This document shows positions 59,001-62,000 of a stretch of DNA of 64,000 bases, piece after piece. Within the stretch, counting starts at the first letter, position 1. Every line of letters begins with the position of its first letter. Position numbers: made by a program. The stretch is from Escherichia coli (GTDB lineage Bacteria; Pseudomonadota; Gammaproteobacteria; Enterobacterales; Enterobacteriaceae): assembly GCF_003991155.1 (NCBI RefSeq), contig NZ_CP031295.1. One strand, written 5' to 3'.

Positions 59001-62000
59001 CAGGAGGCTGCACAGTTACCGGGTATATATAAGATGGGTTCCCGCTTCGCGGGGCTTCGGCCAGTCAGTATTGTCACTCATATGATATTTTTGTGTGTGG
59101 CCTTCCATGCCGCTTTTGCGGCATAACCGGTATCTGACAATGTCTGTAAGATTAATTGTTCTGCACGCTGTTAATTTCCGGAAGTGATTTCTTCGTGGCC
59201 GGAAGTCGGATACCTTTACTGCTTTTTATCCCAGTATAAATCCGGTAAACATCTGATGCGTAGGCAAGACGTCTCTGGTTCTGGCGTTCGGTTTTCCTGA
59301 ATCCGGCATTGTATGCACCAACGGCCTCCCAGGTGACGCCCCATTTTTTAAATGCTATTGCCAGATAATAAGCACCGGTATAAATGTTCATGCAGGGATC
59401 TGTTGTCAGATGTTCTGGCTTAATTCCGTAGCGGGCCAGTTCGTTAAAATGCTGGGAATCTACCTGCATCAGTCCGCTGCCATATCCCGTTACCGGATTA
59501 ATACCGATGGCATTAACCCGGTAACGGGATTCTTGCCATGATATTGCTCTCAGTAAATCAGGATCTATTTTGTAATCCCGGCCTGCAAGATCAAAGCAAT
59601 CAGTGGCCTGGCAGATCTCATTTATAAACATCAGGCAGATGGCTAACATCCATTTTTTCATTTTTCCACCTCTGGTGACTTTATCCGTAAATAATTTAAC
59701 CCACTCCACAAAAAGGCTCAACAGGTTGGTGGTTCTCACCACCAAAAGCACCACACCCCACGCAAAAACAAGTTTTTGCTGATTTTTCTTTATAAATAGA
59801 GAGTTATGACAAATTAGTTCTTCTTGCTCTCTTTGTGATATTTAAAAAAGCGGTGTTGGCGCAGCTACAACACCGCGCCGACACCGCTTTTTAGGGGTGG
59901 TACTGACTATTTTCATAAAAAACATCATCTTATATTAGGGGTGCTGCTAGCGGCGCGGTGTGTTTTTTTACAGGACGCCCCTGGGGGCGCTGCTAGCGGT
60001 GCGTCCCTGTTTGCATTATGAATTTTAGTGTTTCGAAATTAACTTTATTTTATGTTCAAAAAAGGTAATCTCTAATGGCTAAGGTGAACCTGTATATCAG
60101 CAATGATGCCTATGAAAAAATAAATGCGATTATTGAGAAGCGTCGACAGGAAGGGGCAAGGGAAAAAGATGTCAGTTTTTCAGCAACAGCTTCAATGCTT
60201 CTTGAACTGGGGCTTCGTGTACATGAGGCTCAGATGGAGCGTAAAGAGTCTGCATTTAATCAGACTGAGTTTAATAAATTGCTTCTTGAATGCGTTGTAA
60301 AAACACAATCATCAGTAGCGAAAATTTTGGGTATTGAGTCTCTCAGTCCTCATGTCTCCGGAAATCCAAAGTTTGAATATGCCAATATGGTTGAAGATAT
60401 CAGGGAGAAGGTATCATCTGAGATGGAACGATTTTTTCCAAAAAATGATGATGAATAAAAGAAATTTGACTTCGTTCAAATATCAGAGTTTTTATGATTT
60501 AAAAAGGTGACAGTACGAAAGATAATTAGTATATTAATTACGTGGTTAATGCCACGTTAAAATTTGAATTTGAAAATCGCCGATGCAGGGAGTTCTCTCC
60601 TCCCTGCATCGACTGTCCATAGAATCCTTTGTGAGGAGGTTCCTATGTATCCGATGGATCGTATTCAACAAAAACATGCTCGTCAAATAGATCTGCTGGA
60701 AAATCTGACGGCAGTTATTCAGGATTATCCAAATCCAGCCTGTATCAGGGACGAAACTGGAAAATTTATTTTTTGCAATACGCTGTTTCATGAGTCATTT
60801 CTTACACAAGATCAAAGTGCTGAAAAATGGCTTCTGTCGCAGAGAGATTTTTGTGAATTGATCTCTGTCACAGAGATGGAAGCATACAGGAATGAGCATA
60901 CGCATCTTAATCTTGTAGAGGATGTTTTTATTCAGAACAGATTCTGGACAATATCTGTCCAGTCATTTCTTAATGGACACAGAAATATTATTCTGTGGCA
61001 ATTTTATGATGCTGCTCATGTTCGTCATAAAGACAGTTATAATCAAAAAACGATTGTCAGTGATGATATCAGAAATATAATCAGAAGAATGAGTGATGAT
61101 TCTTCTGTATCATCATATGTAAATGATGTCTTTTACTTATATAGCACCGGAATCAGTCATAATGCTATAGCAAGAATATTAAATATATCCATCTCCACAT
61201 CAAAGAAACACGCATCTCTGATATGCGACTACTTCTCTGTTTCTAATAAAGATGAGTTAATTATCTTACTCTACAATAAAAAGTTTATTTATTATTTATA
61301 CGAGAAGGCTATGTGTATCATAAATACGCGTTAATAAGGTGTTAATAAAATATAGACTTTCCGTCTATTTACCTTTTCTGATTATTCTGTAAACATAAGT
61401 GGTAACCAGAAGATAAACAGCGGGAGGTGTTATTGAAAAGATTTGGTACACGTTCTGCAACAGGTAAGATGGTAAAACTAAAATTACCTGTAGATGTGGA
61501 AAGTCTATTAATTGAGGCAAGTAACAGAAGCGGAAGAAGTCGATCGTTTGAGGCAGTAATAAGACTTAAAGATCATCTTCACCGCTATCCAAAGTTTAAC
61601 AGGGCAGGGAATATCTATGGTAAGTCGCTGGTTAAGTATCTGACAATGCGTCTGGATGATGAAACTAACCAGCTACTTATTGCAGCCAAAAATCGTAGTG
61701 GATGGTGTAAAACAGATGAGGCTGCAGACAGAGTTATTGATCATTTGATCAAGTTTCCTGATTTTTATAACTCGGAGATATTCAGGGAGGCAGATAAAGA
61801 GGAAGATATAACATTTAATACACTCTAGTTTTATTCATTTATCCGAAATTGAGGTAACTTATGAATGCTGTTTTAAGTGTTCAGGGTGCTTCTGCGCCCG
61901 TCAAAAAGAAGTCGTTTTTTTCTAAATTCACTCGTCTGAATATGCTTCGCCTGGCTCGCGCAGTGATCCCGGCTGCTGTTCTGATGATGTTCTTCCCGCA

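Follow-up and report, generated by a model that had tools for sequence, protein, structure and literature searches.

The window (the whole stretch of E. coli DNA analysed here, 64 kb) contains at 59726-60000 what is very probably the conjugative transfer origin (oriT), with F-type specificity, of a multiresistance plasmid that is F-like (IncF, MOBF). As an oriT it is nothing new: the element is already known and is ordinary apart from a patch of variant positions at 59802-59983, and this mosaic patch is the only part worth following up. The patch may be a gene-conversion tract exchanged with small relaxase-less ColE1-type plasmids that carry an oriT(F) segment, a reading for which we find the chances evenly balanced.

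The region is collinear with the F oriT (NC_002483) in a gapless alignment of about 95% overall identity, and it is identical to F at 59613-59801, from the BglII site to 49 bp past the nick, and again at 59984-60074. With the BglII site at 59613 as Frost coordinate 1, T141' falls at 59753, as expected. The sites follow each other as in the F plasmid (NC_002483 / AP001918; Frost 1-462), in the order TraI helicase, nic, TraI relaxase, IHF A, TraY, sbmC, IHF B, sbmB, sbmA and traM (Table 1). The oriT of R100 and R1 has the same overall architecture and the same position between gene 19/X and traM, and about 4,750 PLSDB plasmids carry a homologous region. All features of an F-type oriT of F specificity that can be read from sequence appear to be present. 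Natural variation was sampled from 111 metagenome contigs containing the invariant 22-mer 59892-59913 and from database plasmids, giving 115 oriT stretches and 77 distinct alleles; conservation was tallied on the 32 alleles closest to the window.

Table 1. Predicted features of the F-type oriT and its flanks (positions in the window; signed offsets are relative to the nick)
Feature	Position	Strand	Basis
orf169 / gene X, lytic transglycosylase, 169 aa, first leading-region gene	59152-59661	-	Pfam SLT, E = 1.8e-22
Stretch 3' of the nick on the transferred strand (-27 to -3), TraI helicase-mode loading site in F	59726-59750	-	identical to F
TraI relaxase recognition sequence TTTGCGTGGGGTGT/GGTGCTTT (slash, nick)	59745-59766	-	exact match; sequence and nick per PMC2504302
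TraI trans-esterase site	59751-59767		converted limits of the cryo-EM relaxosome (bioRxiv 10.1101/2024.12.19.629322)
Inverted repeat GCAAAAAC/GTTTTTGC, close to the nick on its 5' side (T strand)	59762-59779		fold of single-stranded DNA, z = -2.4
IHF site A (+23 to +60)	59775-59812		positional homology to F; limits from cryo-EM relaxosome
TraY sites sbyC/sbyA (+61 to +90)	59813-59842		homology to F positions; limits from cryo-EM relaxosome
sbmC, inverted repeat AAAAAGCGGTGTTGGCGC/GCGCCGACACCGCTTTTT, 18-nt arms around ACAACA	59845-59892		arms 94% complementary; fold z = -6.5
AT-rich spacer, expected IHF site B	59893-59936		30% G+C; assigned by position only
sbmB core, with first GCTGCTAGCGG copy (59943-59953)	59937-59960		identical to F
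sbmA, four contiguous 6-bp TraM motifs, with second GCTGCTAGCGG copy (59989-59999)	59977-60000		motif scan
traM promoter and leader region	60001-60074	+	24% G+C; identical to F
traM, 127 aa	60075-60458	+	Pfam Tra_M, E = 4e-55; F-type DNA-binding N-terminus (K3, N5)

A preliminary description of this DNA had reported the F nic sequence on the bottom strand, and the search agreed with it in full. The sequence GTGGGGTGTGGTGCTTTT lies on the - strand at 59744-59761; a search of the 64 kb tolerating two mismatches gave no second match, against a chance expectation of none. The F nick sequence GTGGGGTGT/GGTGCTTTT is thus present in one exact copy, and the nick falls between the T at 59753, on the 5' side of the cut, and 59752. 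The 22-nt oligonucleotide used experimentally as F TraI substrate, which defines both the sequence and the position of the nick (PMC2504302), is likewise matched exactly and only once in the window, on the same strand. The predicted relaxase recognition sequence and nick site are therefore identical to the experimentally defined F sequence. An inverted-repeat search and folding of single-stranded DNA both gave a hairpin, TTGGTGGT/ACCACCAA, at 59726-33 / 59738-45, inside the stretch that corresponds to the helicase-mode site, whose limits were taken from the cryo-EM relaxosome (bioRxiv 10.1101/2024.12.19.629322). When the transferred strand is folded alone, the nick lies in an unpaired stretch flanked by two small hairpins (59726-59745 and 59762-59779). 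Across the 32 alleles closest to the window, all distinct natural F-type sequences, the TraI sites hardly vary.

Two related types of origin were considered and rejected. At the nick R100 reportedly has GTAGTGTGT, as Harley and Schildbach are said to have described in 2003; this variant occurs in 5 of the 77 sampled alleles, and the window has GTGGGGTGT. The TraM proteins of R1 and pED208 recognise GANTC via Gln5, and F TraM has Asn5 (PMC3159463). An oriT of the R100/R1 type was rejected on these two points, the nick being GTGGGGTGT and not GTAGTGTGT, and the TraM residue being Asn5 and not Gln5. The truncated form of oriT(F) found on small plasmids (pOriT) was rejected since F-identical DNA continues on both sides of the oriT of the window.

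Beyond the nick, the putative IHF A and TraY sites are at the same distances from it as in F. In the F oriT, IHF site A is the place of the U-turn made by IHF, and three TraY molecules form a train on +61 to +90 (bioRxiv 10.1101/2024.12.19.629322). The IHF A stretch is identical to F at 36 of 38 positions (substitutions at +50 and +58, in an alignment without indels) and the TraY stretch at 26 of 30 (+68, +69, +74 and +83), with one TraY sub-site changed from TCTC to CTTC at +68/+69. The next site is an inverted repeat with arms at 59845-59862 and 59875-59892. TraM footprints are centred on ACAACA (PMC9282650), and we assign the repeat to sbmC because it surrounds this motif; the whole site would extend to about 59895. 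On F, the TraM hub is at +93 to +117 (bioRxiv 10.1101/2024.12.19.629322), and of the TraM sites it is sbmC on which transfer depends most (PMC3159463, PMC7555446). Compared with F, sbmC carries five substitutions and is more symmetrical in the window, with ACCGCT in its right arm where F has ACCGTT. The site order IHFb-sbmB is that given for F (bioRxiv 10.1101/2024.12.19.629322); IHF B was placed by position only, because a scan with the IHF consensus gave weak matches only, one of them at 59920-59932 in the spacer. The sbmC, IHF and TraY sites do not appear in the preliminary description.

That description did single out two copies of a motif upstream of traM, in a GC-rich palindromic context, as likely TraM binding sites. 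The motif, GCTGCTAGCGG, occurs exactly twice, against 0.03 copies expected, and two or more matches were found in 0 of 100 shuffles; with one mismatch allowed, its count in the 64-kb window is not significant. Both copies are locally palindromic and form the cores of a 20-nt direct repeat (59938-59957 and 59984-60003; 90% identical, 46 bp apart), and the G+C content reaches 67% in 59937-60006 vs 24-30% in the neighbouring stretches. On F, a 75-bp fragment holds both sbmA and sbmB, which overlap the traM promoter (PMC3159463, PMC7555446), and F TraM reads four 6-bp repeats A(G/C)CG(G/C)T around the symmetry centre of sbmA (PMC3159463). Within the oriT, the best four-copy match to this motif is found at the equivalent of 59977-60000, scoring 20/24 in F (ACCGCT AGGGGC GCTGCT AGCGGT) and 17/24 in the window (GCCCCT GGGGGC GCTGCT AGCGGT). 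The left half of sbmA carries three substitutions vs F and is degenerate, leaving the site less symmetrical than that of F. Within the 64-kb window, 25 positions attain a four-motif score of 17/24, and the exact A(G/C)CG(G/C)T motif is not enriched window-wide (71 found vs 62 expected); as the TraM motif alone does not identify the sites, the assignment of sbmA and sbmB rests on homology to F. From the motif analysis and the literature descriptions, we infer that sbmA corresponds to 59977-60000 and hence sbmB to 59937-59960, exact borders included. The identity to F DNA and the sbmB/sbmA position given in the literature uphold the TraM-site reading of the boxes, and support their being the right halves of sbmB and sbmA. 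The earlier reading has to be amended here: these sites would act chiefly as auto-repression operators of traM, and are not the transfer-critical sbmC. Little variation is seen among the 32 F-type alleles in the sbmB core and in the right half of sbmA. Three TraM sites are thus predicted, namely the sbmC inverted repeat around ACAACA and the sbmB/sbmA pair beside the traM promoter.

The genes around the oriT have the order and orientation of F (SLT gene, traM, traJ, traY, traA, traL, traE and traK), with all genes from traM to traK intact. At its end, position 64000, the window has reached the traK/traB region, and traI and traD lie beyond it. TraM differs from the F protein only by S98P, in the tetramerisation domain, P98 being common in related plasmids, and TraJ, TraY and TraA are identical to the F proteins; the accessory proteins TraM and TraY thus appear to be of the F allele. 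FinP and the traJ 5' UTR were found by Rfam, and the loop of FinP stem-loop I differs from that of F. A sigma-70 scan gave no convincing + strand promoter between sbmA and traM. On the other side, the orf169 product has four amino acid differences from F. Its gene had been said to end 39 bp from the oriT core; orf169 is on the - strand and so starts there, its start codon facing the oriT with the ATG 91 nt from the nick, and the 39 bp refers to an arbitrary border at 59700.

The oriT lies between orf169/gene X and traM, and its predicted nicked strand is oriented for transfer of the leading region first. Since the nicked strand is the - strand, 5'->3' transfer would proceed towards lower coordinates, where the leading region is found, so that orf169, DUF932, hok/sok, psiB and ssb would enter the recipient first, in agreement with the direction proposed in the preliminary description. 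The leading-region genes are on the + strand, and the entering - strand would therefore be their template, a role that fits early expression from the transferred strand.

Compared with F, the oriT of the window carries 19 substitutions, all located between +50 and +231 (59802-59983): two in IHF A, four in the TraY sites, five in sbmC, three in the spacer and five just before or in the left half of sbmA. All 19 fall in the 200-bp bin 59800-59999, and the neighbouring bins differ from F at 0-8 positions. Each of the 19 states recurs in other plasmids, none being private to the window. Among the 32 alleles, polymorphism is found in the loop of sbmC, in the left half of sbmA and at scattered positions of the IHF and TraY sites. 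No identical 501-bp region was found in PLSDB (best 99.2%) or in the complete E. coli genomes (best 99.4%), and no identical oriT allele in the 111 metagenome contigs (nearest, two differences); the 24 kb around it, on the other hand, have many plasmid matches at 99.6%.

ColE1-type plasmids of 2.3-6.8 kb with only an oriT(F) segment are the source of many of the sequences sampled, and 335 PLSDB records cover a small-plasmid query nearly in full. Such relaxase-less plasmids have already been described (pSe-Kan, pKPN2, pEC156 and, generally, the pOriT plasmids; PMC9282650, PMC4743918, PMC10123127). Their homology to F extends only from -2 to about +249, that is from 2 nt 3' of the nick to inside sbmA, with ColE1-type flanks and without traM or orf169, whereas the window has the full F context. 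Yet over 59753-59996 the window differs from one small-plasmid allele (u13) at a single position. Most large-plasmid alleles show 0-6 differences from F and at least 11 from any small-plasmid allele, and a minority, including the window, shows 15-27 differences from F and 0-10 from particular small-plasmid alleles (0-3 in five of seven). Large and small plasmids with such segments also occur together in the same strain. Strain LZYWN_4 has pS4-aph alongside a Rop-type plasmid of 3282 bp, with no difference between the two anywhere in the segment they share, four rare SNPs included. The large plasmid that best matches the window belongs to strain CFIAFB20190172, and this strain harbours in addition a small oriT(F) plasmid, of 6762 bp, which differs from the window only at 59997. 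An identical rare haplotype in the large and the small plasmid of one strain suggests either gene conversion at oriT or an assembly chimera. As a separate observation, the large plasmid pAPEC3701 holds an integrated ColE1-like remnant that carries the same oriT(F) segment.

If the patch is a conversion tract, co-resident helper and hitch-hiker plasmids would repeatedly homogenise their origins, rewriting the TraY, TraM (sbmC and sbmA) and IHF sites of the helper, and it is for this whole scenario that we see the evidence as evenly poised. The right-hand return to F-type states lies at 59976/59977 in the CFIAFB20190172 plasmid and between 59983 and 59997 in the window, and pS4-aph has none before the homology ends; these differing end points look as if helper and hitch-hiker had exchanged conversion tracts of unequal length. 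The same sequences can also be read as an artefact, the oriT being a real F-type one and the 19 differences having entered it as a chimera, when assembly or polishing mixed in the oriT(F) segment of a small high-copy plasmid from the same cell. The confinement of the patch to the roughly 250-bp segment common to the small ColE1-type plasmids, one of whose alleles is one position away, is what such a chimera would leave, as are the F-like flanks and the lack of any record in the databases searched (PLSDB and complete E. coli genomes) for the exact 501-bp sequence. We nonetheless consider a chimera rather unlikely, although to be taken seriously, because the same kind of patch, with other end points, is found in several independently finished plasmids, and that of pS4-aph extends to within 4 nt of the homology end, where small-plasmid reads would not map. 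Moreover, if both replicons are assembled, many SNPs distinguish their reads, each of which should then map to the replicon it came from.

Two other explanations concern the oriT itself and not the patch. The origin could be an inactive remnant, unused in cis, on a plasmid that has lost or replaced traI/traD or has a relaxase of other specificity; the window stops in traK/traB, which leaves traI and traD outside the view, and 827 of the 4,751 matching PLSDB plasmids are typed not conjugative. This is very improbable in view of the nick region, intact and identical to F, and of the intact traM-traK genes. In addition, most records matching the 24-kb query are typed conjugative, and the close relatives over these 24 kb include pS4-aph and LHM10-1, typed conjugative with a MOBF relaxase, MPF_F being found among such relatives. 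The individually checked carriers of variant states (pS4-aph, p114, pAR349 and pRHB41-C22_2) are typed conjugative as well. As for the GCTGCTAGCGG boxes, they could be hairpin parts of an intrinsic terminator for transcription from the leading region rather than protein sites, and a consensus scan did find, on the + strand at 59941-59961, a hairpin resembling a terminator with a T run after it. Its stem is short, however, with 6-7 pairs, the scan found 2 sites vs 1.0 expected, and the second box is without a T run, while the boxes are identical to the F stretch assigned in the literature to the promoter-proximal TraM sites sbmA and sbmB; a terminator is thus hardly credible.

Taking the region as an F-type oriT, its working can be proposed by homology. 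Sequence identity and collinearity with F, the cognate TraM and TraY and the orientation were read from the window itself, and binding, nicking and transfer are carried over from work on F. IHF would bend the DNA at 59775-59812, and three TraY molecules would bind 59813-59842, also bending it. TraI would then bind the melted - strand at 59745-59766, cut between 59753 and 59752, and stay on the 5' end, while TraM at sbmC (59845-59892) would link the relaxosome to the coupling protein TraD. The - strand would be unwound and exported 5'->3', with the leading region (orf169, hok/sok, psiB and ssb) first and the tra operon last. TraM tetramers on sbmB/sbmA would repress the traM promoters and help to load the weaker sbmC site.

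Given its intact F-type oriT, the multiresistance plasmid, which carries floR, tet(M), cmlA1, aadA1 and a class 1 integron, is probably self-transmissible or mobilisable by F-like plasmids. Typing schemes based on oriT could be confounded by conversion of the kind proposed here, or by assembly chimeras. If the exchange is real, hitch-hiker plasmids would shape the regulatory sites of their helpers, namely the traM operators and sbmC.

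Comparison with the reference plasmid F shows that the 19 substitutions in oriT form a single patch. The patch haplotype of the window is almost the same as that of the oriT(F) segment carried by small ColE1-type plasmids, and in strain LZYWN_4 a rare oriT haplotype is identical in the large and the small plasmid. Large plasmids vary in the right-hand switch point of the patch. The patch originated either from gene conversion between the helper and its hitch-hiker or from an assembly chimera.

In the small plasmids, the F homology (e.g. L120:355-620) has its left end on the 3' side of the nick, at a distance of exactly 2 nt (GTGGGGTGT/GG), with unrelated DNA beyond it, and its right end within the TraM site sbmA (AGGGGTG/TCTG). 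The position of the left junction at the nick suggests that the oriT(F) segment was captured through a relaxase-mediated event. An integrated ColE1-like remnant with a Rop gene and the small-plasmid oriT(F) segment was observed in the 193-kb plasmid pAPEC3701 (NZ_CP127301, 5600-6400), and a second match was found in the same record, indicating that some large plasmids contain two oriT copies.

Two observations concern the other TraM sites. In some plasmids the 20-bp core of sbmC, GCGCAGCTACAACACCGCGC, is replaced by its exact reverse complement, and this reversed core is a small inversion between the inverted-repeat arms. A consensus scan also returned a terminator-like site, in which a T run comes directly after the palindrome of sbmB; this match is probably a coincidence.

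Features of the window and of compared plasmids (window coordinates or equivalents)
Feature	Position	Remarks
Rfam attI/aminoglycoside leader	21353-21431	inside resistance region
Rfam 'Enterococcus sRNA 30'	29412-29576	inside resistance region
Resistance region	1-37000	floR, tet(M), cmlA1, aadA1, intI1; several IS/Tn3-family elements
Leading-region genes	40000-59000	umuDC-like, antirestriction, ssb, ParB-like, psiB, hok/sok (56376-56552), DUF932
Transglycosylase CDS, RefSeq-type start	59152-59754 (-)	603 or 591 nt in homologs
Start of 169-aa transglycosylase form	59661	
Segment ends, small plasmids	59751 and 60001	
Variant patch	59802-59983	
Inverted sbmC core	59859-59878	L005 (pAR349); small-plasmid oriT alleles u5, u7, u10
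Terminator-like site	59941-59961 (+)	
FinP/traJ leader, loop of stem-loop I	60593-60599	

RefSeq places the start of homologous transglycosylase genes upstream, which carries the CDS over the oriT nick. The 169-aa form, whose N-terminus resembles a signal peptide, agrees better with the F literature than this longer CDS.

The resistance region was noted at one end of the window, where positions 1-20000 show 100% identity to ~245-kb Salmonella plasmids. The leading region is typical of F-like plasmids. Its genes lie on the + strand, except for the umuDC-like/DinI cluster and one small hypothetical ORF, so that the transferred - strand is the template of these + strand genes.

Finally, the loop of stem-loop I in the FinP/traJ leader reads TTCTCTC versus ACGTGAA in F (6 of the 7 nt differ), with no difference from F in the stem or in the TraJ protein. 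The 161-bp stretch around this loop matches 725 PLSDB records at at least 99% identity, with 8 listed at 100%, and from these matches the FinP loop allele of the window appears to be common.
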